Sequence record: MT711527.1
DNA length: 41,273 nucleotides
Source: Escherichia phage vB_EcoS_fTaEco01
Direction: 5' to 3' (one strand)
The translations under genes and the position numbers were made by a program. A model generated the notes under the pieces. It was not told the origin of the DNA, ran no database searches, and was given only the letters and a program-made list of their open reading frames with translations. Below, piece after piece: positions 4,356-41,273 of this stretch; within the stretch, counting starts at the first letter, position 1, and every line of letters begins with the position of its first letter.

Positions 4356-4419
4356 AGTGCCTGTGATTATTCCAGTTATTCCACTCAATTGTAAATGTTG
4401 GAATAAACTATTCGAATAG

Positions 4420-4448
4420 TTGACTTTTCACCAAAAATGTGCTAAGCT
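4420..4448 (+). promoter_or_regulatory. sigma70-like promoter (TTGACT-17 nt-TAAGCT)
   Basis: Hexamers at 4420-4425 and 4443-4448 with 17-nt spacer; the ACTATTCGAATAGT palindrome abuts the -35; near-identical architecture at 34591-34619. Confidence 0.5.
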
Positions 4449-7073: not shown

Positions 7074-7076
7074 TTT

Positions 7077-12635: not shown

Positions 12636-12650
12636 TGTTGGTGTAAGTGA

Positions 12651-12679
12651 ATAGTACCCTATTATATTGGGGTGTGCAA
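12651..12679 (-). promoter_or_regulatory. promoter (TTGCAC-17 nt-TACTAT) for the minus-strand accessory cassette
   Basis: Reverse complement gives TTGCAC-ACCCCAATATAATAGGG-TACTAT; nearly identical to plus-strand promoters at 34888-34916 and 36181-36209. Confidence 0.5.
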
Positions 12680-12787
12680 GTAATGTGATAGAATAAGTTT
12701 GCGCCTAGTGTCGCACACGAAAAGCGGGTGGTTCCCGTCTGGCGCATTTATCGTTAACCTGTAACCTCTTAACCAAAGGATTAAAGA

Positions 12788-22722: not shown

Positions 22723-22726
22723 AACT

Positions 22727-25314: not shown

Positions 25315-25344
25315 TTCTCAATTCCTTATATTGTTGGTGTGTGA

Positions 25345-25629
25345 TTAACTATAATAGCTCGCTATTAGGTCGTCAACCTGTTTAAACGAACCAACGATAA
25401 AAACATTTGCACCGCGTTTACGCATCCGCTCGTGCTCACGTATCTGGTGCGGGTCTGGCTTCGTGTTTTCGTCTTTCTTAACCTCGACGAACCATATGAC
25501 GCCGCCAGGGAGAATTACCAGCAGGTCGGGAGCGCCGGAGCGCCCCTCGTAGGAGAGCTTACGAACGAGGCCGCCGATGGCCTCGAATCGCTCTTTTGCG
25601 TATTTCTGTATTTTGCCTTCCGGTGTCAT
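25345..25629 (-). CDS. VRR-NUC domain nuclease
   Basis: PD-(D/E)xK-type core GAPDLLVIL...VIWFVEVKK; ATG 25629 preferred over TTG 25644. Confidence 0.6.
   Translation of the reverse strand: MTPEGKIQKYAKERFEAIGGLVRKLSYEGRSGAPDLLVILPGGVIWFVEVKKDENTKPDPHQIREHERMRKRGANVFIVGSFKQVDDLIASYYS
25348..25376 (-). promoter_or_regulatory. internal promoter (TTGACG-17 nt-TATAGT)
   Basis: Reverse complement TTGACG-ACCTAATAGCGAGCTAT-TATAGT; lies in the 3' end of the VRR-NUC gene. Confidence 0.45.
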
Positions 25630-25778: not shown

Positions 25779-25860
25779 AATACGCACCCCTCACGTTTCG
25801 TATGTTCAACACCACAGCGCGGGCAGATTCGACAGTCTTCTTCATAAAACCAGTAAATTT

Positions 25861-28162: not shown

Positions 28163-28176
28163 TATTTTTGACCCTT

Positions 28177-28202
28177 AGTAAAAAGGCCCAATGAAGGGCC
28201 TT
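28177..28202 (-). terminator. intra-operon terminator/attenuator hairpin between SSB-like gene and DNA polymerase
   Basis: On the minus strand: AAGGCCC-TTCATT-GGGCCTT followed by TTTTT. Confidence 0.35.
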
Positions 28203-28221
28203 AGTTAAATTGATTCAGATA

Positions 28222-28848
28222 TTAGCGACGACGACGCTCGCGGCGCGGTGCTTCATCTTCTTCGTCGTCTTCCAGGTCATTTACGCTGGCAGCGACTTTA
28301 GAACCGCCAAACGCTTTGCCTTCGCCAATGTATTTAATCGCCAGCAGGTTAACGCCGAGGACTTTATATTTCTGACTGAACCAGATTTCAACGCTTACGT
28401 TAGCGACGCAGCCGCTGTAAACCTGTTCACCTTCAATCTGTTCGCCGTCTACATTGAAGTCCTGTTCTACCTGAGTCTCGCCTTTTTTAGAGGTTACAAT
28501 CAGTGGCTGTTTCTGTGCCTTCGCCTTGAAGTAGAAGCCTTCCGGGAAGTCTTCAAACGGATTGTCGCGCTCGGCAATGTCTTTAATCGCACATTTATCC
28601 ATGTGCTTACCTTCGCCGTAGTTGGACTTCATCCACTTCTCAGCGGCAGCTGCGCCCAACGCTTCTTCAACCACAGCGTAAACGGTGTCGTAGAGCGCGT
28701 CGATTTGTGCGTGGTCAGACGGCAGGATGATAGTCGCGCTGTACTGGCCTTTAGTGATTGAGCCATCATCGTTTTCACGGTCTTTTTCGCGTTCGAATAC
28801 GTTAACCCATGCAGTGTTTACTTTACGCAGATTCAGTTTAATACCCAT
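28222..28848 (-). CDS. single-stranded DNA-binding protein-like (DUF2815-type)
   Basis: 208 aa with acidic tail DLEDDEEDEA; sits between a Cas4-like nuclease and the DNA polymerase. Confidence 0.5.
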   Translation of the reverse strand: MGIKLNLRKVNTAWVNVFEREKDRENDDGSITKGQYSATIILPSDHAQIDALYDTVYAVVEEALGAAAAEKWMKSNYGEGKHMDKCAIKDIAERDNPFEDFPEGFYFKAKAQKQPLIVTSKKGETQVEQDFNVDGEQIEGEQVYSGCVANVSVEIWFSQKYKVLGVNLLAIKYIGEGKAFGGSKVAASVNDLEDDEEDEAPRRERRRR

Positions 28849-28901
28849 CGTGATTTCTCGCTTTTCAGTTTACTCCGGGAACTGCCCGGCCAGTGATTAG
28901 A

Positions 28902-28930
28902 ACTATAATAGCTAACTATTCAGGTGTCAA
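28902..28930 (-). promoter_or_regulatory. internal promoter (TTGACA-17 nt-TATAGT)
   Basis: Reverse complement TTGACA-CCTGAATAGTTAGCTAT-TATAGT just upstream of the SSB-like gene. Confidence 0.5.
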
Positions 28931-28934
28931 CACT

Positions 28935-30188
28935 TTATTCCAAATCTTCTTCACTAACCTGATTCCACTCAGGACGTTTGTCGTCTGCCGTTGCGACACA
29001 TGGTGCGCCCGGCTTACGGGTAATAAACGGCTCAAGCGCTGCCATCTCATCCGCCGAAAGAACTTTTGCTGCCTCCGTAGGGGACATCAATACCTCTTTT
29101 TTGAGAATGTCGCCGTGTGACACTTCAATCGCATCGGCATCTTTCCACGCACGGTTACCCATCTTACCTTCAACCAGCTTGTACCCAGGAACTTTCTTAC
29201 CGGAATGCAATGCGGCGGTCATCGCTTTCTCAACCTTGTCGATGTGCTGGCGTAACAGCGGCAACTTCTCATACTCAACTACGAGTTGCTCCGTCGTCAG
29301 TTCCAGCACAAAGTCGTCTTCAAGTTCTTCCGCCAGTACAGAATTAACCGTCTTTGTACGCGCGGCACACTGTTCAGAGAACCGGCACCACTGGCAACCA
29401 TCTACTGACGGCTTAAAGTCTGACGCTTTCAGGTTCTTCTTACCGCGGAAATATGCATCAAGTGCTAACAGTGCTCGTTTTTGTGCGAACTTAGCGAACA
29501 GTTCCAGGCCTTCAACCGAGATATCCCACTCCGACGCACCCCCAGCGTACGGCTGGAAGATGACCAGACGAACAGTTGTTATGTTATAACGTCTCTTGAG
29601 TCGGCGATAGACACCGAGCGCGTAAAGCATAAGCTGCTTGTTTTCTTTCGCTTCAACACGATGCCGTCCAGTTTTAAGGTCGCCAATAATGAGCATGTGC
29701 TCGTCGGTGTTCGCCAGTTCCTGGACAGCAACGAGGTCAGCCGTTCCGAACGTCTCGACACCTTCATACCCAGGATGCAATACCTCAGTAAGATTGACTC
29801 GCATTTCCAGCTTGGCGTAAGTCGCTACGTCGATAATCGCTTTGCAGTAGTCGGTGTACTTGCGCACCTGCTCAATCATGTCCGCCGTAATCAGTACCGC
29901 GCCTTTCATTGGGCTGATTAGCGCCTTAATCTGGCCTTTACCTTCATCCAGCACGTAAGCGCCGACTTCGCGCTCTAACGGCAACGCGGTTCCTTTGATG
30001 TACTGGTTTAAATGGACCTCAGCTATAGTGTGGCACGCGGTTCCTGTAACGGCGGCTTTACCGGACGTGTTAGGAATATCTTTTTCACAGGCCAGAGAAG
30101 CCGGGCAGGTTAGCCACTTTTTAGCGCCTGACGGTGATAGTAAGGCGTGTACATCGTTATTGCCGCCGCGCTCTTTTAGAATCATCAT
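28935..30188 (-). CDS. PD-(D/E)xK family nuclease, Cas4/RecB-like (DUF2800-type)
   Basis: N-terminal LLSPSGAKKWLTCPASLAC, C-terminal Cys cluster DGCQWCRFSEQC consistent with Cas4-like Fe-S nucleases. Confidence 0.6.
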   Translation of the reverse strand: MMILKERGGNNDVHALLSPSGAKKWLTCPASLACEKDIPNTSGKAAVTGTACHTIAEVHLNQYIKGTALPLEREVGAYVLDEGKGQIKALISPMKGAVLITADMIEQVRKYTDYCKAIIDVATYAKLEMRVNLTEVLHPGYEGVETFGTADLVAVQELANTDEHMLIIGDLKTGRHRVEAKENKQLMLYALGVYRRLKRRYNITTVRLVIFQPYAGGASEWDISVEGLELFAKFAQKRALLALDAYFRGKKNLKASDFKPSVDGCQWCRFSEQCAARTKTVNSVLAEELEDDFVLELTTEQLVVEYEKLPLLRQHIDKVEKAMTAALHSGKKVPGYKLVEGKMGNRAWKDADAIEVSHGDILKKEVLMSPTEAAKVLSADEMAALEPFITRKPGAPCVATADDKRPEWNQVSEEDLE

Positions 30189-30442
30189 TTAGTGCCCTCC
30201 GGCAGTTCCGGTAAATACATCCAGTGAGTTATGCCCATCTCGATATACCGTTTCGTATATAGCTGATTTCCGTTCTCATCCAGCCCAGCCGTAATGTCGT
30301 CGAAATAGTCCTGTATATGTACAAAATCGATCCCACCTTCCGGGAACCCGTTATCGTCATATTTACCACCATCTACTGAGCAAACTAAAACAGAATCATC
30401 TTTTGACTCCGGCAATGCTTCGTTTACACTAACCCAATTCAT
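30185..30442 (-). CDS. DUF551-like hypothetical protein
   Basis: C-terminus GITHWMYLPELPE matches the THWMPLPEPP signature also seen in 35665-35865; ATG 30442 preferred over GTG 30457. Confidence 0.45.
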   Translation of the reverse strand: MNWVSVNEALPESKDDSVLVCSVDGGKYDDNGFPEGGIDFVHIQDYFDDITAGLDENGNQLYTKRYIEMGITHWMYLPELPEGTK

Positions 30443-30711
30443 ACCCTGTTCTCCCACTGGTCAATTAAATGTCGCGTCTTATGGTCGCAATGCATAGCCC
30501 AACCATACATCGACTCGAAGACATAAAAGTCAGGCTTGGCGAATGTCGTGCGCTTAATCTGCGACACGTGACGGCCTATATCTTTAGACAGCGGTACTTT
30601 GCCTAAGTACGCCATCTCTTCCATCTGGTGTGCACCGGACGGCGCACGTAACAGCCATAGCGCCTCTGTGTTATCCCGCCGGTCAACGGCGCGGTATAGT
30701 TGGTAAATCAT
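30439..30711 (-). CDS. hypothetical protein
   Basis: 90-aa ORF, GAGGG RBS, ATGA-coupled to downstream gene. Confidence 0.4.
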   Translation of the reverse strand: MIYQLYRAVDRRDNTEALWLLRAPSGAHQMEEMAYLGKVPLSKDIGRHVSQIKRTTFAKPDFYVFESMYGWAMHCDHKTRHLIDQWENRV

Positions 30712-30754
30712 AATCCCGACCCTCGGTTAAAGCGGCCCGAAGGCCGCGGGATAG

Positions 30755-31276
30755 TTATTCTTCTTCGAAATACTTGTTCTTGATTGCTGTCAGGCGCTCC
30801 AGATACTCAGCCAGGTCTTCGTCTTTAATCGCTGCAATCTTCATCTTCTTACCGGTAAACTCTTCCAGCAGTTCGTCAGAATCGTCGCACGCGGCATCGC
30901 TTGGGCCTTCGTTAATCGCATCGTCGATAGCCTGAATCTGGTCGCGCAGATACTGGTAATCGACTTCTTCTTTCTCTTCTTCCGGCTCTGGCGTTGGCTC
31001 CTCTACTTTAGCTTTACGCGGCTTGCGCTTCGGCTTCTCTTCTTCTGCTGGTTTAGTGTCGACGATGTCTTCACCTTCAACCGGGATTTCTTTCGCCTTC
31101 TCGACTTCTTCAAGTGCTTTAGCCAGTTCTTTTTTAACTGTCTCTACCCCAGTTACCGCGACGTCAACAGTCAATTCACCTACAGATTTGCTAGTCGGTT
31201 GTTTCACACTGTTTGCAGCAATCAGTTCGTGGGCGACTACGAAACGTTCCAGTAATACTAAGAATTTCTCTAACAT
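30755..31276 (-). CDS. acidic hypothetical protein (first gene downstream of promoter 31308-31336)
   Basis: 173 aa, strongly acidic with a short basic stretch (KPKRKPRKAK); strong GAGGAG RBS. Confidence 0.45.
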   Translation of the reverse strand: MLEKFLVLLERFVVAHELIAANSVKQPTSKSVGELTVDVAVTGVETVKKELAKALEEVEKAKEIPVEGEDIVDTKPAEEEKPKRKPRKAKVEEPTPEPEEEKEEVDYQYLRDQIQAIDDAINEGPSDAACDDSDELLEEFTGKKMKIAAIKDEDLAEYLERLTAIKNKYFEEE

Positions 31277-31307
31277 TTGTTTCTCTCCTCTCGTTTGGTA
31301 TGGGCTA

Positions 31308-31336
31308 ACTATAATAGCGAACTATTCACTTGTCAA
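31308..31336 (-). promoter_or_regulatory. promoter (TTGACA-17 nt-TATAGT) for leftward operon
   Basis: Reverse complement TTGACA-AGTGAATAGTTCGCTAT-TATAGT. Confidence 0.5.
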
Positions 31337-31340
31337 TGGG

Positions 31341-31369
31341 CTTTTCTAAAATAATTAATATGGTACTAT
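31341..31369 (+). promoter_or_regulatory. possible rightward promoter with extended -10 (TGG-TACTAT)
   Basis: TG-n-TACTAT at 31361-31369 upstream of the regulator gene; -35 poor. Confidence 0.3.
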
Positions 31370-31400
31370 TCACATATCAACTGACTAAGGAGTAATTGGC

Positions 31401-31616
31401 ATGCAACCATCTGAACTAGGTATCCGTGTAGAGCAACGCCGTAAAGAACTCGGTATCTCCCAGCGCCATCTGGCTGTCCTGGCCGGTGTTTCCCAAGGCG
31501 CAATTAACCAGCTTGCACTCGGTGTAACTCAGGACGTCCGCCCGGCGACGCTGTTTAAACTGGCGGAAGTGCTTGAAGTAGACGCCAAGTGGCTGGCGTT
31601 CGGTGAAGGGGCTTAA
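31401..31616 (+). CDS. XRE-family helix-turn-helix transcriptional regulator (Cro/CI-like)
   Basis: 71 aa with HTH core LGISQRHLAVLAGVSQGAINQLA; AAGGAG RBS; own terminator; only plus-strand gene inside the minus-strand block. Confidence 0.7.
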   Translation: MQPSELGIRVEQRRKELGISQRHLAVLAGVSQGAINQLALGVTQDVRPATLFKLAEVLEVDAKWLAFGEGA

Positions 31617-31631
31617 CGCCCCTTTCTTTTT
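31606..31631 (+). terminator. rho-independent terminator
   Basis: AAGGGGC-TTAAC-GCCCCTT followed by TCTTTTT. Confidence 0.6.
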
Positions 31632-31633
31632 AC

Positions 31634-33895
31634 CTATTCCAAATCCTCCTCTGTCACTGTCAGCATTTCATTCGGTTCGTATATTGTCTTAGGAATTTTG
31701 TTGTCGTTTATACCCCACGGCAGCCGGTACTGCTTAGGTATTGGCCTGTTGTTGTTATCCAGACCCGAGACGATAATCCCGGCCTCATGCATCTCTTCCA
31801 GTTTCTTTCGAAGGTCGTTATTAGCGTTAATCGGTACGCCGTAACTATCTTCTTTCGCCGCTTTGACGATAGCGGACATAGAAAACCCGCGCTTGTCGTC
31901 ACCCTGCTCCTGCAATTTACCCAATGCGTAAATAACCGTAGCCTCTTTGGAATCCAGTTTCTCGAACTGGCCTACCTTTTCTTTAACGGCTTCCTTCTGT
32001 TCGTCGGTCATACCTTCTACTTTCTTCACGAAGACAGAGAAGGCGTTGAAGTTGACAAAGACATCAATATGCGGATTTCCCGCGTCAAAATCGCGCACAT
32101 CGTCGCTACTGTACCCTTCTGGAAGACCCATGAAGTTGTGAGTTGGTTCTTTCTTTTCTGGTGGTTCCGCTATCTGAATCTTCTGTATTACGAATCCTCT
32201 GGCTTTCTGCCGTTCTCCGTTTCGGTTCTTTATGTGGTACAGGTTTATCTCTAAGTTGTTATCGTTGTCCGGTTTATGCAGAAACATCCCGTTATCGATG
32301 GAGTTGTGAAAATCACTACCACCTTTCGGCATCATGCCGTTCTCGGATGGTACGGTTTCGTCGATGTTTTTAGTCGGGTGCACCATTGCACCTACCGCGG
32401 CGTTAAGCGTCGATGCTATTTCGTTAAGCGCCTGCGCTGCTTCTTTCATAGACCGGTTGTCGTTCTCGTCGAAGCCCGGTATGCAAGTTTGTAGAGTATC
32501 AAACGTAACCTTTACAATTTTCTCTTCACCGGCAACACGGCGCATCATTCTCACCGCCTGGCGGCGCCACGCCTCATCAAGTAAATTACACCCATCGGCG
32601 ACACAATCGATAATGTGCAAGCGGTCCAGGCTATCCCCGAGGGCAATCTGCAAAGACTTTTTATGTCGCTCGAACGACTGCGCACCTTCACCCGCAAAAA
32701 TGAACGCATGTCCTTCTGCGACCTCAGCCCCGCCGAACGCATATCTTTTTTCAGCGGCAATAGCGGCGTCAATCGCCATACTAAATGTTGACTTACCAGT
32801 GTGGGACTTTGCGCAAATGTAGAAGGATTCATTAGTCTGCATAAGGCCGTCTACGACGGAGTAAGCAGGTTCTTTTTCTACTTCCGGCTCGTCTTCAAGG
32901 TCTTCCAGCGTGCAAGTTACAGGCTCTTCGTTCTCTGTGCGGTGCAATTCCTCAATCTCTTCGTCCGGTAAATCCGGCAAAGCCGCACGAATGCTGTTAA
33001 TACTGATAGGTTGCTTGTCTACGTTAAGCTCGTCTGGCAGTCCGCACATACGCAAGGCCAAATGTTGTCGACGGTTAAGTTCAGTGCAAGCGCCGTTGTT
33101 TGTGTGCTGGCACACGAAGCGCACTTCTTTACCGTCAAGCATAATGCTGGTGGAACCTTTGCCTGTATGCAGATGTTCATTAGGGCATGGCACTTCATAC
33201 CCTCGGCCGGAAGATAAAGCGTCAAGGCCCAGCTCGGCTTCGCAGAAATGAGCTATATCTGCGTTAAGCCCGTGCTCATCGGCGGCAAGTGTCTTAGCCT
33301 CGCGTTTACGCAGCCCCATCTCTTCGGCTTTCTTGATGTACCGCTCCGCACGGATAACACGCCCTTCTGTAACCGTTATCTTAGACTCTTTATGCGGCAG
33401 GTAGATGAGGCGGTTGCCGTCTTCCGTGCAGTGGTCGCGCAGCGATTCATCTATTTCTAACTCGGCACAAATAGCACGTTGCACCATCCACGCGTCGTTA
33501 GAGTTAAACGGCGTGCGAGCTGGAACCAGAACGCGGAATGCGTAATCCCCGTTTTTACACGCGTGCTGGTGTGACGCCGTTGTATGCAGAATGTTGAAGA
33601 ACGGCGCATTCTTAAATTTGCGTGTCAGGTTGCGGTACTGAGTACGGTTGAGATGGTCAAAGTCGAACTTAACCACACTGTCTTCCAGAATCGCGTTCTT
33701 ACGGCGACCACCAACAGGTGCGATAGCTTTCTGTTTAATCTTGGCGGCGTCGTACTCTTCCTTAGTCCACGACGGGTCCACGGATAAACGCTTCGATGTA
33801 TCACAGACATACTCCACAAACTGCTCCAGCGGCATTTCACGCGCTACAGGGTTTTTATCGAATGTGTTACGCAGCGTCGCAAAAACAATATTCAT
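31634..33895 (-). CDS. DNA primase/helicase (zinc-binding primase-like N-terminal region plus P-loop ATPase)
   Basis: 753 aa; Cys/His cluster CPNEHLH...CQHTNNGAC; Walker A AKSHTGKST. Confidence 0.7.
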   Translation of the reverse strand: MNIVFATLRNTFDKNPVAREMPLEQFVEYVCDTSKRLSVDPSWTKEEYDAAKIKQKAIAPVGGRRKNAILEDSVVKFDFDHLNRTQYRNLTRKFKNAPFFNILHTTASHQHACKNGDYAFRVLVPARTPFNSNDAWMVQRAICAELEIDESLRDHCTEDGNRLIYLPHKESKITVTEGRVIRAERYIKKAEEMGLRKREAKTLAADEHGLNADIAHFCEAELGLDALSSGRGYEVPCPNEHLHTGKGSTSIMLDGKEVRFVCQHTNNGACTELNRRQHLALRMCGLPDELNVDKQPISINSIRAALPDLPDEEIEELHRTENEEPVTCTLEDLEDEPEVEKEPAYSVVDGLMQTNESFYICAKSHTGKSTFSMAIDAAIAAEKRYAFGGAEVAEGHAFIFAGEGAQSFERHKKSLQIALGDSLDRLHIIDCVADGCNLLDEAWRRQAVRMMRRVAGEEKIVKVTFDTLQTCIPGFDENDNRSMKEAAQALNEIASTLNAAVGAMVHPTKNIDETVPSENGMMPKGGSDFHNSIDNGMFLHKPDNDNNLEINLYHIKNRNGERQKARGFVIQKIQIAEPPEKKEPTHNFMGLPEGYSSDDVRDFDAGNPHIDVFVNFNAFSVFVKKVEGMTDEQKEAVKEKVGQFEKLDSKEATVIYALGKLQEQGDDKRGFSMSAIVKAAKEDSYGVPINANNDLRKKLEEMHEAGIIVSGLDNNNRPIPKQYRLPWGINDNKIPKTIYEPNEMLTVTEEDLE

Positions 33896-34020
33896 TTCTT
33901 TTTCTCCGCACGTTCTAAGGCTTCCTGCATACGGCGCATTGCGCGGTTCATCTTTACTGGTGCGAAGAAATCAGCGCCGTGTTTCTGGCGGCGTAGCTGT
34001 GGAACTATTAACTTCGTCAT
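33892..34020 (-). CDS. hypothetical small basic protein (42 aa)
   Basis: AAGGA RBS; stop overlaps primase ATG (ATGA). Confidence 0.3.
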   Translation of the reverse strand: MTKLIVPQLRRQKHGADFFAPVKMNRAMRRMQEALERAEKKK

Positions 34021-34070
34021 TGTATAATCCTTGTGCTTACTTTGATGATTTATGCTTCGGCCCCGACGTT

Positions 34071-34304
34071 CTAGCGTTGGGGTTTCTTTTGTCTACGCAC
34101 CGCATTAACCCACTCTCCTTCGCTACGGTAAAAACTGCAATCAAGGATATCCTCTATAGAAAATTTAACTATTTTAGTGGGTCCACAAAAGTTATAAGGG
34201 AAAAGTTCTACATAACACCCATCGTCGGTTATATTTGACGCAATCTTGAAATAATATTTAATGCTGCCGTCTTCGCGGAAGCTACAACCCATACGCCCAA
34301 TCAT
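34071..34304 (-). CDS. hypothetical protein
   Basis: 77-aa ORF ATGA-coupled to upstream HTH gene. Confidence 0.4.
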   Translation of the reverse strand: MIGRMGCSFREDGSIKYYFKIASNITDDGCYVELFPYNFCGPTKIVKFSIEDILDCSFYRSEGEWVNAVRRQKKPQR

Positions 34305-34483
34305 TTCACGTTCTCCTTAATCCATGCTTCAACTTTATTACGGTCGAATGTTCCCGGTAAACGGCGACCCATAACCTTAATACAACAATCCGGGAATTTA
34401 CCACTGCGTAACCAGTTATTAATTGTCTGACGTGTCACCCCAATACGCTCGGCTACTTCATTCTGGGTCATGTAATGTTGCAT
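34301..34483 (-). CDS. helix-turn-helix DNA-binding protein (AlpA/excisionase-like fold), first gene of leftward early operon
   Basis: MTQNEVAERIGVTRQTINNWL HTH core; CAGGAG RBS before ATG 34483. Confidence 0.55.
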   Translation of the reverse strand: MQHYMTQNEVAERIGVTRQTINNWLRSGKFPDCCIKVMGRRLPGTFDRNKVEAWIKENVK

Positions 34484-34514
34484 TTTTAAATCTCCTGTTT
34501 GTTTGGTGAAGCCA

Positions 34515-34543
34515 AGTATAGGATAGCGGGAATGTAAAAGCAA
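34515..34543 (-). promoter_or_regulatory. leftward early promoter (TTGCTT-17 nt-TATACT)
   Basis: Reverse-complement hexamers with 17-nt spacer; back-to-back with the rightward promoter at 34591-34619. Confidence 0.45.
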
Positions 34544-34590
34544 CCAAAACACCACACAAAGTTACTAAGATACAAAAGATGCTACTAGTA

Positions 34591-34619
34591 TTGACTTTTA
34601 CTAAGAAATATGGTAAGCT
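34591..34619 (+). promoter_or_regulatory. rightward sigma70-like promoter (TTGACT-17 nt-TAAGCT)
   Basis: Same hexamers and spacing as the promoter at 4420-4448. Confidence 0.5.
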
Positions 34620-34625
34620 CAGCCT

Positions 34626-34825
34626 GAGCTTGTGAAGTATGAACAAGCGACCGCGGCGCGCGGCAGGCGAAACGAGCACGTGTAACGTGTGGAGTGAGGC
34701 TCGCTGGCGCGTTTGGGAGGCCCAAAGTCTATTGTAATTCCCGCCTAATTATCTAAGTTACTGATTTGCCGTAGGTTAGAACCGCCAGCTCACTCACTCA
34801 CTCTTGGTGCCTTCGGCACCACGTT
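34626..34825 (+). ncRNA. candidate structured leader / small RNA (copy B of duplicated element)
   Basis: 38-nt core at 34623-34660 identical to 4452-4489; short hairpin GGTGCC-TTC-GGCACC at 34806-34820; no conserved ORF. Confidence 0.3.
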
Positions 34826-34887
34826 CGTTTCGTTTCGCTCGCTACCCCCTTAAACGAAAGAATCACAACGGCAACGTAACTAATCTC

Positions 34888-34916
34888 TTGCACACCCCAA
34901 CATAATAGGATACTAT
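34888..34916 (+). promoter_or_regulatory. promoter (TTGCAC-17 nt-TACTAT) for rightward small-gene cluster
   Basis: TTGCAC-ACCCCAACATAATAGGA-TACTAT. Confidence 0.5.
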
Positions 34917-34950
34917 TCACTTATCGAAACGAGACAGAGGAGTGAGGGTT

Positions 34951-35136
34951 ATGTTTAAACGTGGTCAGTTGGTTAAATGCGCCGACGATAAACACGGCAT
35001 AATTGAATTAAAATCTGCTTTATTTCCAGGAAAGTACGTAGTTACCGTGCAAAATGTGAGAGGAGTAAATTCACAAATATACGTAGCGGAGGAGAACTTA
35101 AAACTCATCGGCAACAATTTTAAATTTAAAGGGTGA
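34951..35136 (+). CDS. hypothetical protein
   Basis: GAGGAG RBS 8 nt upstream of ATG. Confidence 0.5.
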   Translation: MFKRGQLVKCADDKHGIIELKSALFPGKYVVTVQNVRGVNSQIYVAEENLKLIGNNFKFKG

Positions 35137-35140
35137 AGTG

Positions 35141-35341
35141 ATGGAAGAATTATTTGAAGAACTGAAACATCATGATTTCGAGGAAATATATTTCGTAGCT
35201 GAACGCTACGAGGTGCATTTATCGGACGGTATAACGGTTATTACATCTACCAGCGAGCGAATGTTAAATAGCTTACGAGCAATACGAACGGCATCGAATC
35301 ATGATGCTTGTGCCGACGACGCTGAGGGAGGTTGCCGTTAA
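35141..35341 (+). CDS. hypothetical protein
   Basis: Acidic 66-aa ORF tightly spaced after upstream gene. Confidence 0.45.
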   Translation: MEELFEELKHHDFEEIYFVAERYEVHLSDGITVITSTSERMLNSLRAIRTASNHDACADDAEGGCR

Positions 35342-35520
35342 TGCGAATCCGTATAACTGACCGCAGGCTTGTCCGTATAACTGACCGCAGGCTTATAGAT
35401 TTCGGTATCTCGGTAGGTGATGTTTTTCCGGCGTTCAGCATCAACCATTATGGTTTTATGATTGAGTACAAAGGGTCGTTATTGTTCGTGTATCGGGATG
35501 AATGTGAGGTTCTGGTATGA
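35341..35520 (+). CDS. hypothetical protein containing an in-frame tandem repeat
   Basis: 59-aa ORF (TAATG overlap) encoding RITDRRLVRITDRRLI from a 23-nt tandem duplication. Confidence 0.4.
   Translation: MRIRITDRRLVRITDRRLIDFGISVGDVFPAFSINHYGFMIEYKGSLLFVYRDECEVLV
35348..35394 (+). repeat. tandem direct repeat, two 23-nt copies with 24-nt period
   Basis: TCCGTATAACTGACCGCAGGCTT at 35348-35370 and 35372-35394. Confidence 0.8.
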
Positions 35521-35672
35521 GAGAAGCATTTGAACGGTGGGCTGTGGTCGAGGGTCTGCCGGTTAACAAGGGTTCAAAGAAAGAGTACCTGAACGTTAAG
35601 ACGCGTCTCGCGTGGCGGGCGTGGAAAGCTGGTGTGCAATCCTTGATTGAAAGAGGTGTGAGGTATGGGTGA
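35517..35672 (+). CDS. hypothetical small protein (51 aa)
   Basis: ATGA coupling at both ends. Confidence 0.35.
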   Translation: MREAFERWAVVEGLPVNKGSKKEYLNVKTRLAWRAWKAGVQSLIERGVRYG

Positions 35673-35865
35673 GTGGATTAAGTGTAGTGAGATGCTGCCG
35701 GGTAATGGGTATACGGATAAAGAGTTCCTGGTGTATGAAACGTTAAATAACGCAGTTCAGCACGATTATTACATAGTTCCTGATGACGGGAGAAAGCCTT
35801 TCTGGAATCACTACGATAAGTACGTGACGCACTGGATGCCGTTACCCGAGCCGCCAGAAGTGTGA
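35665..35865 (+). CDS. DUF551-like hypothetical protein
   Basis: C-terminal VTHWMPLPEPPEV signature; paralogous to 30185-30442. Confidence 0.5.
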   Translation: MGEWIKCSEMLPGNGYTDKEFLVYETLNNAVQHDYYIVPDDGRKPFWNHYDKYVTHWMPLPEPPEV

Positions 35866-35999
35866 TGTTCAATAGTTTGGGATTTTACTGAGTGACTTAC
35901 GCTGCTACACAGCAGCGTACAACTTTAACTTAGTGTCGTCAAAAGGCGACACTTTCATCAAACGCAACAATCGAAGCGACTATTGCAGGAGATGCAACA

Positions 36000-36173
36000 A
36001 TGATTACTAAAGAACAGGCTGAACGACTAATCACGTTAATCGACACGATGGTTGATGCGAAAACCGATTTAGCAACGGCGACAGAGGAATCCGCTACCTG
36101 GTCGCTTGAAGAAAGAGAGGCAGAAGCGGAAAGGGAGTTACTGGCGTTCATCGACTCTATAACACACCAATAA
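36000..36173 (+). CDS. hypothetical small acidic protein (57 aa)
   Basis: AGGAG RBS 9 nt upstream of ATG. Confidence 0.35.
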   Translation: MITKEQAERLITLIDTMVDAKTDLATATEESATWSLEEREAEAERELLAFIDSITHQ

Positions 36174-36180
36174 AATTTAC

Positions 36181-36209
36181 TTGCACACTAAGATAGAATA
36201 GGCTACTAT
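36181..36209 (+). promoter_or_regulatory. promoter (TTGCAC-17 nt-TACTAT)
   Basis: TTGCAC-ACTAAGATAGAATAGGC-TACTAT. Confidence 0.45.
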
Positions 36210-36240
36210 TCATTTACACAAACGAGAGGAGAGACAGAAT

Positions 36241-36369
36241 ATGAAAGATTATAGCGAAGTAACTTTAGGTGAGTTGCAGGACGAGTACGAAGATATGCTC
36301 TACCCGTTCATCTGCGACGGGGACTACAACGGCGTCTATAACGGGGTGAGCGAAGAATATGAACACTAA
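36241..36369 (+). CDS. hypothetical small protein (42 aa)
   Basis: GAGGAG RBS; overlaps start of next gene. Confidence 0.35.
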   Translation: MKDYSEVTLGELQDEYEDMLYPFICDGDYNGVYNGVSEEYEH

Positions 36370-36907
36370 AAACGAAATATTCGAGTACCTGATCGACCAG
36401 CTACGGCAGCAGGTAAATAACAGCCGGAGCGAAGACCTGGCTCATGAGGTGCAGTCACTTAAGAATCAGTTACGTGATGCTTCGGCGCAGATTAAGGAGT
36501 TACATATGGCGCTGGCTACCGCCACCGGGGATGTAGAGGCTTACAAACTTGTGCGTAAGGGTGGGTACATTTCTAGGGGCCAGAGCTACGTGGTTGGCGA
36601 ACATGTGCCCGGGCCAACGGTAAATTGTCGGTGCACCCAGACGCCTGTACCGCCGGAGCAATCTGGTTGCCGTAAAGAAGATACCCAGGAATGCGAGCAC
36701 TCTTGGATTATTATGCCTGGGTTGTTTCTCAGCGAAGGCAATCCGAACAACGTTCCTGGTAGCGAGCTTTGCTCTAAATGTGGTAAACGTGAGTGGGACG
36801 ACAAGGAATATAAACCGAAAAACGATACTCAGGAATGTGATCATGATTGGGTTCTTGATGCCGACGAGGATTATTTTGTGTGCCGCAGATGTGGAGAGAC
36901 GACATGA
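36359..36907 (+). CDS. hypothetical protein with Cys-rich C-terminal half (possible zinc-ribbon)
   Basis: 182 aa; paired Cys motifs CRC, CRKEDTQEC, CSKCGK, CRRCGE. Confidence 0.45.
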   Translation: MNTKNEIFEYLIDQLRQQVNNSRSEDLAHEVQSLKNQLRDASAQIKELHMALATATGDVEAYKLVRKGGYISRGQSYVVGEHVPGPTVNCRCTQTPVPPEQSGCRKEDTQECEHSWIIMPGLFLSEGNPNNVPGSELCSKCGKREWDDKEYKPKNDTQECDHDWVLDADEDYFVCRRCGETT

Positions 36908-37107
36908 CCAGCATCTTATTTATCTGGGTGCTAACTGCGGGCCAGATGCAACTAGCGGCATCAGAAACGTTTTATTCGATGGGGGCGTGCCAGTCAGCGG
37001 CACGCGCCGCAGAGAACGCACACTTCCTGTTTCAGGGCGACAAGCCCAACGATTCAGAGGTACGCGCTATCTGCTCACCTAAGCGACTTGGCAATCAGGA
37101 GAAGTGA
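36904..37107 (+). CDS. hypothetical protein with N-terminal hydrophobic segment
   Basis: ATGA-coupled; MTSILFIWVLTAGQ start. Confidence 0.4.
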   Translation: MTSILFIWVLTAGQMQLAASETFYSMGACQSAARAAENAHFLFQGDKPNDSEVRAICSPKRLGNQEK

Positions 37108-37109
37108 TT

Positions 37110-37289
37110 ATGGTACAGAGATATTTATTACAAGGCGGTTTTGTCGCCCCGTATGATGAAGGACACTGGGTATTATATAACGATTACGAGAAACTCGAAG
37201 CTGAGTTACAGAAATACAAAGACCAGTTCCCGGATTACGTAGAGTGCGAGAACTGTGGGTCAATTACACATGTGGAAGGGGTGGAGTGA
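37110..37289 (+). CDS. hypothetical small protein (MVQRY paralogue 1)
   Basis: Begins MVQRY and shares ..Y.DYEKLE.. with the next ORF. Confidence 0.45.
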   Translation: MVQRYLLQGGFVAPYDEGHWVLYNDYEKLEAELQKYKDQFPDYVECENCGSITHVEGVE

Positions 37290-37468
37290 TGGTGCAGAGA
37301 TACGAAAACGACCACGGCGATATGTTTCAGGCCACGGAAGGTGATTTTGTCCGCTATGAAGATTACGCGAAACTGGAGCGCAAACTGCGTAACTTCGCCG
37401 ACCAGGTATTGTACGCGCCTTGTTCGAAAGTTACCGAAGAAATGGCCTGCGAGATTCTCGGAATATGA
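37289..37468 (+). CDS. hypothetical small protein (MVQRY paralogue 2)
   Basis: TGATG overlap with paralogue 1. Confidence 0.45.
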   Translation: MVQRYENDHGDMFQATEGDFVRYEDYAKLERKLRNFADQVLYAPCSKVTEEMACEILGI

Positions 37469-37758
37469 GCCTGGCAACTGACATCCTGAAACGAAGCGGC
37501 CTTGCGCCGCTGTCACCGAGAGCTAAAACACAGATATACAAGCGCCGCCGTAACGCGCTGTACCCTGAGATTCAGGCCCGACGCAAAGCTATCAGCGCCT
37601 GTGGCTTCCAGAACGGGAAGGCCGTGAATCTCGGTGAGTTCAAAACACAGGAACGTGCAGCTATAGCTAATCGGTTATTTAATTACTGGAAATCGCTTGG
37701 ATACGATGATATTCCGACGAAACCACAGAGACGACAATACATCTGGAGACATAAATAA
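37465..37758 (+). CDS. hypothetical basic protein
   Basis: 97-aa ORF, ATGA-coupled. Confidence 0.4.
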   Translation: MSLATDILKRSGLAPLSPRAKTQIYKRRRNALYPEIQARRKAISACGFQNGKAVNLGEFKTQERAAIANRLFNYWKSLGYDDIPTKPQRRQYIWRHK

Positions 37759-37833
37759 ACCGTTATTAAGATAATTCCTAACCGTGCTATCCTCCAGTTA
37801 CTGCATACTTAATACGCACCTGGAGGATTCATC

Positions 37834-38142
37834 TTGGATAAATTTACTGAAACAGTGACGGGGTGGCTTCTCGCTGCCGCGCTCGCCGGAGGGGTCATCG
37901 GACTACGACAACATAAGTCCGTTATTTCTGGCCCTATCGACGGATTCTGCTTTATTGCTACTGGTTTCGCCTGCGCTGTATTTGGCGCACCTCTCGCGGC
38001 TCAATGGTTCGGTATCACGGGCGACCGTGAAATCGCTGGCCTTGGCTTCATCATCGCTATTCTCTGGATGCCTATCTATTCCCGTCTCTCCAGTATCGTC
38101 GCTGGAGAATACATCGCGCGTCGAGGAGGCACAGATGAATGA
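37834..38142 (+). CDS. holin-like membrane protein (TTG start)
   Basis: 102 aa with about three hydrophobic helices; GGAGGA RBS 6 nt before TTG; directly upstream of endolysin. Confidence 0.5.
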   Translation: MDKFTETVTGWLLAAALAGGVIGLRQHKSVISGPIDGFCFIATGFACAVFGAPLAAQWFGITGDREIAGLGFIIAILWMPIYSRLSSIVAGEYIARRGGTDE

Positions 38143-38407
38143 GTTATTCTGGTTCGGCGGTATGCTGGCAATCGGCGGCACATCGCTGTTTAATGTATAC
38201 CATCCGAGCGTGGATGACGGGCTATTTGGTCGGGTGCTCTATATCCTGACTGCTATCGTCTGCGCTGCCGGATGTATCCACCTGTTACAGGGCAGCATGT
38301 CACCAACGCTGCCTGAGACATTAATCACATTAGTTGCGCTGCGCCAGATTCGCCAGGCGTGGCTGTCATACGGAGGGCATAAGCGTGTCTCGAAACATTT
38401 CAGATAA
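38135..38407 (+). CDS. second small membrane protein of lysis cassette (holin/antiholin-like)
   Basis: GAGGAGG RBS; two hydrophobic helices; overlaps neighbours. Confidence 0.4.
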   Translation: MNELFWFGGMLAIGGTSLFNVYHPSVDDGLFGRVLYILTAIVCAAGCIHLLQGSMSPTLPETLITLVALRQIRQAWLSYGGHKRVSKHFR

Positions 38408-38873
38408 TGGATTGCATTTTACCGCCGCATGGGAGACTTTCTGCGGAACTGCGTATCGTGCTACGCCGAACGAGAAGTACCTGACTATTGGTTATGGTCA
38501 CTACGGGCCAGACGTAACACCAGGTAAGACCATCACACCAGGACAGGGCTTGCTGTTACTGAATCGCGATATGGCTAAGGCTGTAGCTGCTGTTGACGCA
38601 GCAGCACACCATTCTCTTACACAGGCACAGTTCGATGCGGTGTGTGACCTGGTCTATAACGCAGGTGCTGGTGTGATAGCAGCTACTACCGGAACCGGTA
38701 AGGCGCTGCGTTCGGGTGATATTACGACGCTGCGGGCTAAGCTGGCGCTGTTCATCAACCAGAACGGCAAACCGTTACTTGGCCTGCGTCGCCGTACCGC
38801 AGGACGTCTGGCATTGTTCGACGGTAAACCGTGGCAGGAGGCTGAGGCTATTGGGCGCGCGGTGAAAGGTTGA
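38385..38873 (+). CDS. endolysin, lysozyme-like (glycoside hydrolase family 24-like)
   Basis: AWETFCG...YLTIGYGHYG resembles the catalytic Glu ... TIGxGH region of phage lysozymes; GTG 38385 with GGAGGG RBS preferred, TTG 38334 possible. Confidence 0.65.
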   Translation: MSRNISDNGLHFTAAWETFCGTAYRATPNEKYLTIGYGHYGPDVTPGKTITPGQGLLLLNRDMAKAVAAVDAAAHHSLTQAQFDAVCDLVYNAGAGVIAATTGTGKALRSGDITTLRAKLALFINQNGKPLLGLRRRTAGRLALFDGKPWQEAEAIGRAVKG

Positions 38874-38939
38874 CACCTAAGACTAATCCGACGATACTTA
38901 AATCACCTCCTGTTCCATCCCTCTGCTCTCCAGTTTTAT

Positions 38940-38970
38940 CCCGGCCCTGACCCAGCCGGGATTTTTTTTT
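38940..38970 (+). terminator. strong rho-independent terminator
   Basis: CCCGGC stem with 9-nt loop and GCCGGG, followed by nine consecutive T. Confidence 0.75.
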
Positions 38971-38992
38971 ATCTATCTTCCGCAATGACTAG

Positions 38993-39021
38993 TTGACTAT
39001 TACTCTCACACCAATTATATT
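38993..39021 (+). promoter_or_regulatory. sigma70-like promoter (TTGACT-17 nt-TATATT)
   Basis: Hexamers with 17-nt spacer downstream of the strong terminator. Confidence 0.45.
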
Positions 39022-39054
39022 TACTCCATCGACAACGAGAACGGAGTAGAGAAA

Positions 39055-39204
39055 ATGAAAATCACAGACATCGAAGCATTCAAAGACGCACAACTGATGG
39101 CACGCATCGCCGTTAGTAACCTGAGCAACAGCATTCCTGCGGACGCGTTCTGGTTCGCTGCGATGCAGACACTTAAAGCAGCTTACGCAGGAGAGAAGAA
39201 ATGA
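39055..39204 (+). CDS. hypothetical small protein (49 aa)
   Basis: GGAG RBS; first ORF after promoter. Confidence 0.35.
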   Translation: MKITDIEAFKDAQLMARIAVSNLSNSIPADAFWFAAMQTLKAAYAGEKK

Positions 39205-39359
39205 GCGAGTCAGAAGGAAATATCACGACACCATCCGCCGGGAAGAAAGTCAACCGCACCCCGTTCCCGACACGAGAGGAACTGATGAAACGTAACAGTT
39301 TCCCTGGGCCGGACAAGAACAAGTATCTTAATCGCATGTGGGGAGAGCGTAAAGAATGA
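39201..39359 (+). CDS. hypothetical small protein (52 aa)
   Basis: ATGA coupling. Confidence 0.35.
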   Translation: MSESEGNITTPSAGKKVNRTPFPTREELMKRNSFPGPDKNKYLNRMWGERKE

Positions 39360-39541
39360 CTGACCGCGAATACGAAAAGATGATGGTAGAGGCTGTTAAC
39401 GGCGGCGTAGACATCGGACACGTGATGCACGTCCTGAATACTAAAATCGCGGTAGCTGAGCAAATGGTTGAGTCGCTTTATGAGACGCGCCGTGAACTGA
39501 TTAACCGCTTCAACCTGAACAAAGGTGACACCAATGCCTAA
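39356..39541 (+). CDS. hypothetical protein
   Basis: 61-aa ORF, ATGA-coupled. Confidence 0.45.
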   Translation: MTDREYEKMMVEAVNGGVDIGHVMHVLNTKIAVAEQMVESLYETRRELINRFNLNKGDTNA

Positions 39542-39782
39542 AATCACAATCGCATCGCTCGAGCGCCGTATTCTGGTGCTTGAGTCGGAGAAACAGACGT
39601 TAGGCGGGCAACTGTCAATTAACGGTGAGTACCAGTTAGCCGCATTTAAGGTTCTTCTCATGTTGTTGAGAGGAGAAGAGGAAAAGATGAACGCCTGCGA
39701 GCATGATTACCGCCTGCATTTAGTTGATGGGGTGCATCGAGTCACATGCTTAAAATGCGGTAAAGCGTATGAAGTCGCCTGA
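39534..39782 (+). CDS. hypothetical protein with C-terminal CxxC...CxxC-like motif
   Basis: ATG 39534 preferred over GTG 39525; ACEHDY...CLKCGK. Confidence 0.4.
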   Translation: MPKITIASLERRILVLESEKQTLGGQLSINGEYQLAAFKVLLMLLRGEEEKMNACEHDYRLHLVDGVHRVTCLKCGKAYEVA

Positions 39783-39951
39783 ACCGGTAGTTATTGATGG
39801 CGTCCTGTGGAAACCTTACTCGGTTAACCACATCGACGCCGACGGGAAGAAGTTCAGCTTCTACATTTTTGCAATTAGCCGTGAGCACGCCGCCTGTGTG
39901 GTCGATGATATACGAGAAACGGCGTGGCTTGGCGATGAGATAGTGGGGTAA
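39769..39951 (+). CDS. hypothetical protein
   Basis: 60-aa ORF overlapping upstream gene. Confidence 0.4.
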   Translation: MKSPEPVVIDGVLWKPYSVNHIDADGKKFSFYIFAISREHAACVVDDIRETAWLGDEIVG

Positions 39952-39953
39952 GT

Positions 39954-40124
39954 ATGTTCAGTGACATTAACGCGGCAATCGAAGAAGCAATCTGGCGTCG
40001 CTACAACGGCGAGCAACAACGGCACTTCTGCCTGGTGCAGCGCGGTAACGTGATTGCCGTGGTACAGGACCGCGATAGTAAATATCCGAATGCGATGTGG
40101 ACAACGAGGAATTTCTTAGGATGA
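39954..40124 (+). CDS. hypothetical small protein (56 aa)
   Basis: Tightly spaced, co-oriented. Confidence 0.35.
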   Translation: MFSDINAAIEEAIWRRYNGEQQRHFCLVQRGNVIAVVQDRDSKYPNAMWTTRNFLG

Positions 40125-40357
40125 TTACCAGCATTCCGAACCTGATTAAAGAATTCGGCACGATGGCGGAGACATGCCGACAAACCGGCATCAACGAGAT
40201 GACGATTGCCAAGTACAGCAAAGACGTTAACTGCGAGCGCCATGTAATTTATAACAACCGTCTGATGACGCACGTTAAGACAAGCCCGGTGTTATTCACG
40301 CGCCGGGGTATCACTAAAACGGAGCAACGTATTGCTAAAGAGGAGAGTGGGGAATGA
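40121..40357 (+). CDS. hypothetical protein, possible DNA-binding
   Basis: ATGA-coupled; ATG 40121 preferred over ORF-track start 40097. Confidence 0.4.
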   Translation: MITSIPNLIKEFGTMAETCRQTGINEMTIAKYSKDVNCERHVIYNNRLMTHVKTSPVLFTRRGITKTEQRIAKEESGE

Positions 40358-40512
40358 TTAGTATTCTGGAGTTCATCGACGACCAAGTTTGGTACGAGCC
40401 AGAGTTAAATAAGTATTCAGTTAATGGGAAAATATTTCGGCGCAAAGGCCAGGCAGAGCGTTACGCAGCTAAACTATACCGTCAGCTTGTCAAGGATGGT
40501 TTCTTCAAATGA
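40354..40512 (+). CDS. hypothetical small protein (52 aa)
   Basis: ATGA-coupled; followed by terminator. Confidence 0.35.
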   Translation: MISILEFIDDQVWYEPELNKYSVNGKIFRRKGQAERYAAKLYRQLVKDGFFK

Positions 40513-40613
40513 GACTACTAATCATCCCTAACGCCCGGGCCATTCCCGTAGCTAACGACCATTACGGCGGCGACGGTAAAAGAGCACCACGCCACGGCCT
40601 ATACAACTGATAC

Positions 40614-40637
40614 AAGCCCTCTACCGAGGGCTTTTCT
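40614..40637 (+). terminator. rho-independent terminator
   Basis: AGCCCTC-TACC-GAGGGCT followed by TTTTCT. Confidence 0.55.
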
Positions 40638-40731
40638 GTACATCCTGCCCAATCACCCTATATAATCCCTTTAGACGCGTAGGGCGCGTCTGGTGCGCTC
40701 TGATGGTCAGACGCATATGCAAGGGGATTAT

Positions 40732-41273
40732 ATGAAGCTGAAACTCAAGCAGCCATCGCCAGAGGTGGTGCAAGCTGCACATGAAGAAGCTGTTAGCGCA
40801 AACCGCCGACGTAAACGACCGCGTGGGAAACAGAGCCTTTATCAATCGTCCCGTAATTCCGCCGCGTTGTGGGACCCGGACTATTGCGACGCGTTAATCG
40901 AGTTCTTCGACCGTACGTCGTGGGAACTTGTGCCTACGTCCAAGGGTGACGAACGTCCGCTGATTCAGGATAAACCGCCGTCACTGGCCCGCTTCGCCTC
41001 ACACATCGGCGTAACTATCCCGATTATTAAGCTGTGGCTGCGTGAGATTCCCGCATTTGCAGAAGCCTATGAAACAGCACAGGCGCTGGAAGAGGCATAT
41101 TTCACTGAGACAGGGGCCGCGGGCATCTCTGCTACGTTCGCCGCAGCTAAACTGGGCCTCGGTAAAGAGAAACCAGTCGAATCCACCGAAGAAACGGCAC
41201 CGACTGAGATTATTTTTAGTGTTGCAGAGCCTGTAGGTAAAATTGTAACAACGAATATGGGTGAGGTAGAGGA
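40732..41273 (+). CDS. 3'-truncated ORF (at least 180 aa, runs off window); candidate terminase small subunit
   Basis: AAGGGGA RBS; no stop before window end; basic N-terminus; if the genome is circularly permuted it would sit directly upstream of the large terminase at position 1; not in ORF track because it lacks a stop. Confidence 0.35.
   Translation, partial: MKLKLKQPSPEVVQAAHEEAVSANRRRKRPRGKQSLYQSSRNSAALWDPDYCDALIEFFDRTSWELVPTSKGDERPLIQDKPPSLARFASHIGVTIPIIKLWLREIPAFAEAYETAQALEEAYFTETGAAGISATFAAAKLGLGKEKPVESTEETAPTEIIFSVAEPVGKIVTTNMGEVE

Follow-up and report, generated by a model that had tools for sequence, protein, structure and literature searches.

The window, the whole 41,273-nucleotide stretch of DNA analysed here (Escherichia phage vB_EcoS_fTaEco01, MT711527.1), contains at positions 34888-34916 a promoter-like site, TTGCAC-N17-TACTAT, that was predicted to be one of three near-identical promoters with a common spacer. 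This site raises the question of why a promoter spacer would be conserved beyond the needs of sigma-70, and of whether a further protein acts on the promoters that share it.

When a 4-kb query (34000-38000) was searched, Kagunavirus genomes matched at up to ~96% identity, the best match being vB_EcoS_fKuEco01 (MT711525), whose gene coordinates agree with those of the window and whose large terminase gene is at position 1. Judged by these matches, the window is a Kagunavirus genome (Guernseyvirinae; a K1G-like E. coli siphophage). Members of Kagunavirus and Jerseyvirus are popular candidates for therapy and biocontrol and serve widely as small engineering chassis, and to our knowledge their transcription programme has so far not been characterised. 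The window has the following layout:

1-22.7 kb, plus strand: structural genes, with a minus-strand cassette inserted at 10225-12620
10225-12620, minus strand: accessory cassette (Imm superinfection immunity, metallophosphoesterase, PNK and dNMP kinase)
22.9-34.5 kb, minus strand: replication genes
34.9-41.3 kb, plus strand: small ORFs, lysis genes and further small ORFs

The comparison set consisted of K1G, the Jerseyvirus Ent1, phiEap-2, TO17, ST20 and 80 IMG/VR loci centred on the DNA polymerase gene.

Three promoters share a spacer and flanks

The motif TTGCAC-N17-TACTAT has exactly three matches in the window, at 34888-34916 (plus strand), 36181-36209 (plus strand) and 12679-12651 (minus strand). 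We refer to these as sites A, B and C and to their promoters as type 1:

34887..34923, plus strand: site A, type 1 promoter; -35 TTGCAC at 34888-34893, 17-nt spacer, -10 TACTAT at 34911-34916, inferred +1 near 34923
36180..36216, plus strand: site B, type 1 promoter; -35 at 36181-36186, -10 at 36204-36209
12644..12680, minus strand: site C, type 1 promoter; -35 at 12679-12674, -10 at 12656-12651

All three sites fit the pattern CTTGCACAC-N6-A-N-AATAGG-N-TACTATTCA, for which 0 matches are expected by chance, and a search with the 33-nt degenerate consensus CTTGCACACNNNNNNANAATAGGNTACTATTCA at three or fewer mismatches retrieved sites A, B and C alone (0 in 100 shuffles), confirming the predicted trio of look-alike promoters with common hexamers and a similar spacer. 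As the hexamers TTGCAC and TACTAT by themselves, at two or fewer mismatches, gave 5 sites against 3.4 expected and thus no enrichment, the type 1 signal resides in the spacer and flanks that the sites share. Between the C that precedes the -35 and the inferred start, ~38 nt, site A (34888) and site C (12679) differ at 2 positions, and site B diverges from them in the upstream half of the spacer.

Each site carries the hallmarks of a sigma-70 promoter, namely TTGCAC (3/6), a 17-nt spacer and TACTAT (4/6) with A-11 and T-7 present. Their 7/12 consensus positions place them under the 4+4 threshold of our sigma-70 scan and make them moderate to weak by consensus. From these features we infer that the type 1 sites are host sigma-70 promoters, on the assumption that they are active without help.

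Sites A, B and C are all intergenic, upstream of the first gene of an operon and co-oriented with it, and they lie 28-32 nt ahead of a ribosome-binding site and ATG (34951, 36241 and 12620, respectively). Site A is placed ahead of a small-ORF operon, and site B is followed by ORF 36241..36369, ORF 36359..36907 and further genes towards the lysis genes. Downstream of site C are the superinfection-immunity gene and the phosphoesterase/PNK/dNMP-kinase cassette as far as 10225. Two details of the original prediction needed revision: the sequence ACTATTCA, said to follow the -10, overlaps it instead (TACTAT+TCA), and the GAGGAG-type ribosome-binding site said to follow each promoter is present behind sites A and B but not behind site C, where AAGGGG precedes the ATG.

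We also observed a shared leader, AACGAGA(G)GAG, that extends the ribosome-binding site of the first genes behind several promoters (34927-34942, 36220-36234, 31283-31295 on the minus strand, and 39032-39046) and is kept in Jerseyvirus as well (..aacgagaaaagagg..).

The conserved spacer contains a palindrome that recurs at other promoters

The extra conservation of the type 1 sites is concentrated in the downstream half of the motif, in an inverted repeat, AATAG-N4-CTATT. Perfect copies of this palindrome number 6 in the window, where 0.04 are expected, and a further copy is near-perfect; a AATAGGNTACTATTCA search allowing three or fewer mismatches found 8 sites against 0.7 expected. It was also the commonest element in an unbiased genome-wide count of gapped palindromes with 5-bp arms, in which terminator stems ranked below it. 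All 7 copies overlap a promoter-like site:

34904..34917: palindrome AATAGGATACTATT, proposed operator, over the -10 of site A (about -19 to -6)
36197..36210: palindrome AATAGGCTACTATT, proposed operator, over the -10 of site B
12650..12663: palindrome AATAGTACCCTATT (plus-strand reading), proposed operator, over the -10 of site C
31308..31336, minus strand: type 2 promoter TTGACA-N17-TATAGT, with a palindrome at 31313-31326 in the spacer (-25..-12); ahead of ORF 30755..31276 and the nuclease operon, and divergent from a gene for a Cro-like protein
28902..28930, minus strand: type 2 promoter TTGACA-N17-TATAGT, with a palindrome at 28907-28920 in the spacer; ahead of the DUF2815 and DNA polymerase genes
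25348..25376, minus strand: type 2 promoter TTGACG-N17-TATAGT, with a palindrome at 25353-25366 in the spacer; overlaps the 3' end of the VRR-NUC ORF, ahead of methyltransferase/helicase genes
31357-31370: near-palindrome AATATGGTACTATT, with 1 arm mismatch, over the extended -10 TGgTACTAT (31361-31369) of the Cro-like gene

Three weaker variants are of uncertain membership:

4415..4428: weak variant AATAGTTGACTTTT, over the -35 of a TTGACT-N17-TAAGCT promoter
38988..39001: weak variant ACTAGTTGACTATT, over the -35 of a TTGACT-N17-TATATT promoter (38993-39021) that leads into the late/terminase operon
2787: weak palindrome variant

The type 2 promoters were the top three sigma-70 matches in the scanned interval 22000-41273. 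Since the palindrome is present in these three strong replication-operon promoters and at the promoter of the proposed regulator, the set has at least seven members, of which sites A, B and C are a positional sub-class. The co-regulated set of the original prediction does include the accessory cassette, which lies behind site C, but it is not limited to three promoters.

The palindrome is centred at -12.5 in type 1 promoters and at -18.5 in type 2 promoters, and possibly at -33.5 in others, so that its left arm AATAG is invariant at -19..-15 in the former and at -25..-21 in the latter. Its gap relative to the -35/-10 elements is 10 in type 1, 4-5 in type 2 and 7 in the Imm promoter of Ent1, and these three different gaps indicate that it tracks no single polymerase contact. 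In both promoter classes the -10 shares bases with the right arm CTATT (type 1, TACTAT; type 2, CTAT|TATAGT). This overlap would be accommodated if no extra factor were involved and the similarity arose partly from intrinsic promoter needs (spacer shape, a G at -14 and the context of the -10) and partly from a common origin of the copies or gene conversion between them, and copying would be expected to produce the near-identity of sites A and C, which coincides exactly with the core promoter. The same explanation could cover ACCCCAAYAT, which sites A and C also share, which is partly kept in Jerseyvirus (AACCAAAYAT) and for which the palindrome does not account. However, the left arm is invariant despite having no known role in sigma-70 recognition, and symmetry around a free 4-bp centre is the signature of a dimeric binder. 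The element also keeps its sequence while its position in the promoter moves by 3-6 bp between promoters and genera.

We considered and rejected a function of the palindrome at the RNA level: in type 2 promoters the element is upstream of the inferred start, and an Rfam scan of the window at gathering thresholds gave no match.

Both arms are conserved across two genera

In loci whose polymerase is at least 74% identical to that of the window (Kagunavirus/Jerseyvirus), AATAG-N4-CTATT was the top or joint-top palindrome in every case, each stretch of 22 kb or less containing 2-7 perfect copies. It was absent from Guernseyvirinae outgroups further afield or took a degraded or altered form there. 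Ent1 carries the palindrome at homologous promoters with different centres; at its Imm promoter (TTGCAT-N7-AATAG..., with TATTAT as the -10) the distance between the element and the -35 has changed by 3 bp. Type 2 promoters of some Kagunaviruses have an 18-bp spacer, and there the palindrome remains in register with the -10. In phiEap-2, the promoters corresponding to sites A and C and to the divergent promoter carry the variant AATAG-N4-GTATT.

To follow individual sites, we picked orthologue sets by flanking anchors, independently of the motif, for the promoter at 25376 (25 unique sequences) and for site B (16 unique sequences); these two gave clean footprints, and sites A and C and the promoters at 28930 and 31336 were left out on account of off-target anchors or indels. 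In both sets variation was found in the 4-bp centre, in the spacer upstream and in the flank downstream, and the arms were essentially invariant. Fixed arms around a variable centre are the pattern expected of a site for a dimeric protein. They are not expected of polymerase contacts, as the left arm lies at differing distances from the hexamers and has no known sigma-70 role. The claim that the spacer is conserved beyond the needs of sigma-70 is thereby sharpened to a 14-bp palindrome whose arms are near-invariant over two genera while its centre and the remaining spacer drift. As the site B orthologues fix both arms while the rest of the spacer varies freely, we regard an origin in promoter needs and copying alone as unlikely.

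Conservation of whole promoter blocks could also reflect recombination, with these 35-45 bp segments serving mainly as short homology for the exchange of accessory or small-ORF cassettes between related phages. Gene content behind sites A, B and C does differ among relatives while the promoter blocks are kept, and the neighbouring helicase-primase and HTH_17 genes have been replaced wholesale in some phages. Such exchange does not account for the symmetry, the variable centre or the copies in unrelated TTGACA-TATAGT promoters and at the regulator gene, and it could be a side effect of the blocks instead of their function; we therefore hold it to be improbable as the main explanation, more so than an origin without an extra factor.

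The element has been reported as a phage RNA polymerase promoter

The palindrome is already in the literature, where it carries a wrong label. In the Kagunavirus fBC-Eco01, PHIRE returned seven copies of tgAATAGTa-ccTATTat-T that were called phage RNA polymerase promoters (PMC9825357). This is the same element as ours, as its reverse complement, in the same number of sites per genome. Golestan is also reported to have seven PHIRE promoters (PMC7203180). The published label presupposes an RNA polymerase that these phages do not encode: none is annotated among the 72 CDS of MT711525, nor in K1G or Ent1, and no large ORF of the window is left unassigned that could be one. Moreover, the motif is symmetric, is set in sigma-70-type hexamers and occurs in both orientations relative to transcription. 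We thus reject the label as contradicted by gene content and give promoters for a phage-encoded polymerase almost no credence.

Our literature search found no 5'-end data for any Guernseyvirinae phage and no study testing the palindrome or the HTH protein described below, and a search for the literal motif string returned unrelated matches only. A Kagunavirus RNA-seq study with time points to 120 min gives gene classes in a figure only and without start-site resolution, which is too coarse for kinetics (PMC12645636).

A 434 Cro-like protein is a candidate binder

The gene divergent from the type 2 promoter at 31336 encodes a small helix-turn-helix (HTH) protein:

31401..31616, plus strand: 71-aa HTH_3/XRE protein, proposed operator-binding repressor; followed by a bidirectional terminator at 31605-31625

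This protein matches Pfam HTH_3 (2e-11), and in the PDB, 434 Cro matched it best (E 5.5e-7; both proteins 71 aa long, with residues 6-68 aligned to 4-64); 434 repressor and P22 c2 were matched too. Proteins of the 434 Cro type bind as dimers to inverted repeats of 14-18 bp, contacting the outer bases and leaving the centre non-contacted, and by analogy this geometry matches the palindrome of this phage. Two copies of the palindrome are within the divergent intergenic region of the Cro-like gene itself: the near-palindrome at 31357-31370 is 44 bp from the type 2 copy at 31313-31326, and we propose that it is an autoregulatory operator.

The Cro-like protein was present in 45/45 motif-bearing Kagunavirus/Jerseyvirus loci with coverage. 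A caveat is that its alleles in Kagunavirus and Jerseyvirus share only 51% identity, with 4/7 recognition-helix positions different, yet the 14-bp core of the sites does not differ. Loci with the Kagunavirus allele, among them the Raoultella phage RP180, had G144/T162 as the base flanking each half-site, and those with the Jerseyvirus allele, phage Jersey among them, had T in 72/72 cases; this covariation runs parallel to phage lineage and, for the most part, to host genus, and is confounded with both. Phage Jersey combines a polymerase module 97% identical to that of the window with the Jerseyvirus Cro-like allele, and its DUF2815 promoter differs from that of a Kagunavirus locus solely by the G-to-T flank and one centre base. 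In phiEap-2 the Cro-like allele is 38% identical and the HTH_17 protein is absent. TO17-type phages have a recognition helix much like that of Ent1, yet carry degenerate sites only. Taken together, the co-occurrence and flank patterns favour the Cro-like protein as the probable binder, short of proof.

Another protein could occupy these sites, either a host factor common to E. coli, Salmonella and Raoultella, a NinH-like protein, or the product of a second HTH gene in the window:

34301..34483, minus strand: HTH_17 protein

The HTH_17 protein is 70-100% conserved over both genera, against 51% for the Cro-like protein, in keeping with the invariance of the arms, and it is missing in outgroups where the palindrome decays. 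Its own promoter, TTGCTT-N17-TATACT (34543-34515, minus strand), lacks the palindrome. An HTH-domain gene, possibly the HTH_17 ORF, is listed as early in the RNA-seq study (PMC12645636). On the other hand, HTH_17 is absent from 2/41 motif-bearing loci with coverage: the cultured phage ST20 and the IMG/VR locus L075 lack a homologue and keep all 6 perfect sites and the near-perfect one, and for this reason we rejected HTH_17 as the sole binder. The phage phiEap-2 also has the variant motif at orthologous promoters without HTH_17. Proteins of the HTH_17/excisionase type usually bind direct repeats. As for host proteins, the flank preference goes with the phage allele in the Raoultella phage, and we know of no host factor with an AATAG-N4-CTATT site. 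Among host sites compared by eye (sigma-32, Fur, ARG box and FNR), none in the form known to us fits the palindrome; the FNR site has the same 5-4-5 geometry with a different sequence. Binding by a protein other than the Cro-like one therefore seems doubtful to us, although of the alternatives considered we give it the most weight.

A proposed repressor with dispersed operators

We propose, with a probability of about 0.5, that the palindrome is the operator of the phage's Cro-like repressor, laid in sigma-70 promoters, with the protein encoded at 31401..31616 as its candidate binder. Under this proposal, host RNA polymerase would use all of the palindrome-bearing promoters, and the operator would take the form of a 14-16 bp inverted repeat, (T/G)AATAG-N4-CTATT(A/C). 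A Cro-like dimer bound to operators in the core promoter would block RNA polymerase, so that, as the protein built up, early and middle units would be turned off, the accessory cassette and the small-ORF operons included. The protein would also limit its own synthesis through the operator at its own promoter. Promoter activity, the identity of the binder and repression on binding are each predicted here from sequence comparison.

The original prediction had invoked an additional factor, phage- or host-encoded, that recognises these promoters. Comparison across phages does indicate a separate DNA-binding factor, for which the 434 Cro-like HTH protein is the phage candidate; the position of the palindrome in the core promoter (-19..-6 or -25..-12) favours a repressor over a factor that helps the polymerase. 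Similarly, as operator and promoter show no constant helical phase, steric repression fits better than activation. A MerR-type mechanism, which needs a 19-20 bp spacer with the palindrome, is ruled out by the spacers seen here, which are 17 bp and occasionally 18 bp long. A point against the repressor model is that nearly all early and middle promoters would be hit, which does not account for continued expression of the lysis genes downstream of site B.

A more far-reaching version of the repressor model would have the temporal programme of an entire subfamily of strictly virulent siphophages, Kagunavirus and Jerseyvirus, run by one 434 Cro-like protein and ~7-9 single operators at differing core-promoter positions, some covering the -10, some within the spacer and, in late promoters, possibly some covering the -35. 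The position of each operator and its non-contacted 4-bp centre would set the order of switch-off, and operator and protein would co-evolve allele by allele. We put this version forward tentatively, as a possibility with the odds clearly against it.

If the repressor model is true, a regulator-operator pair over most early and middle promoters would give a testable map of gene timing in these phages and would correct the 'phage RNAP promoters' mislabel in the literature. It would also offer compact repressible promoters for engineering payloads and account for a 'lytic' phage always carrying a gene that annotation pipelines flag as a repressor.

Comparison with known regulatory systems

The proposed system resembles 434 Cro and repressor, which act on 14-bp operators, and their P22 relatives c2/Cro, in pairing a small single-domain HTH protein of 71 aa with a 14-16 bp inverted repeat that has conserved outer arms and a non-conserved 4-bp centre, and in having sites that overlap core promoters, including the regulator's own. 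It differs from 434 in that its operators are single and spread across seven or more promoters, the phage being regarded as strictly virulent and having no CI partner, integrase or tripartite OR/OL, and in its half-site, which is AATAG as compared with ACAA, the pairing of protein and site being a predicted one here. We rejected a lambdoid immunity region, as its tandem tripartite operators, CI with a C-terminal domain and lysogeny genes were not found; among the 72 CDS of MT711525 no CI-length repressor or integrase is annotated, and the sites occur singly, at separate places in the genome.

The stoperators of cluster A mycobacteriophages likewise repeat a single repressor site many times across the phage genome and place many transcription units under one regulator. 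Stoperators, however, are asymmetric, depend on orientation and lie in the transcribed DNA of temperate phages, whereas the ~7-9 sites considered here are palindromic and lie in core promoters. Sets of promoters for the host polymerase with similarity beyond the hexamers are likewise known from T5, from T7 (A1-A3) and from T4 (early and MotA-dependent middle promoters). In those families, which define a temporal class, the extra conservation consists of AT-rich UP or spacer sequence, or of a MotA box that takes the place of the -35 and has its centre at -30, in contrast to the symmetric element centred at -12.5 or -18.5 described here.

Other repeated and exchanged elements

A duplicated unit occupies 4421-4650 and 34607-34830 (plus strand), each copy in a long intergenic region and the second just upstream of site A. 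It consists of a TTGACT-N17-TAAGCT promoter and, behind it, a transcribed stretch of ~50 nt that is nearly the same in both copies (CCTGAGCTTGTGAAGTATGAACAAGCGACCGCGGCGCGGCAG) and contains a 6-bp hairpin, and its 3' part is more loosely similar and ends at a hairpin (about 4628-4650; 34805-34821). The two copies, which gave no Rfam match, could be paralogous small RNAs of ~190 nt or leaders for a short MNKRPRR... peptide. The unit is limited to Kagunavirus, with 2 copies in MT711525 and in ST20 and 1 in K1G, and 0 in Ent1, phiEap-2 and TO17.

A second type of palindrome, GGAATAA-N-TTATTCC, has four perfect copies in phiEap-2 (11502, 11875, 12638 and 12671 of its locus, L004), next to a TTGACA -35 in the head-gene region, and three copies of this type are present in TO17. 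In the window, related half-sites (TTATTCC, GGAATAAACTATTC) are found at 4380-4420, just upstream of the TTGACT promoter at 4421. These palindromes may be the binding site of a late-gene regulator.

The helicase-primase gene (31634-33895, minus strand) is ~28-32% identical to the Ent1, phiEap-2 and TO17 versions, and the polymerase is 66-85% identical to those of the same phages and 97% identical to that of phage Jersey. Yet another allele fills the helicase-primase slot of L075. This pattern indicates apparent wholesale replacement of helicase-primase alleles within the replication module. The HTH_17 gene and its neighbour (34071-34555) are replaced in L075 (3759-4344) and ST20 (6954-7539) by ORFs for a 47-aa CxxC...CxxC (Zn-ribbon-like) protein and a 149-aa protein, the latter without a Pfam match.

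Finally, the leader of the DUF2815/polymerase operon contains a hairpin, CCGGGCAGTTCCCGG, at 28876-28890 (minus strand), directly after the inferred start of the promoter at 28930. The sequence CACTGGCCGGGCAG that flanks it is kept even in phiEap-2 and TO17, distant Guernseyvirinae whose promoter sequence has diverged, and the hairpin may be a conserved 5' leader structure.
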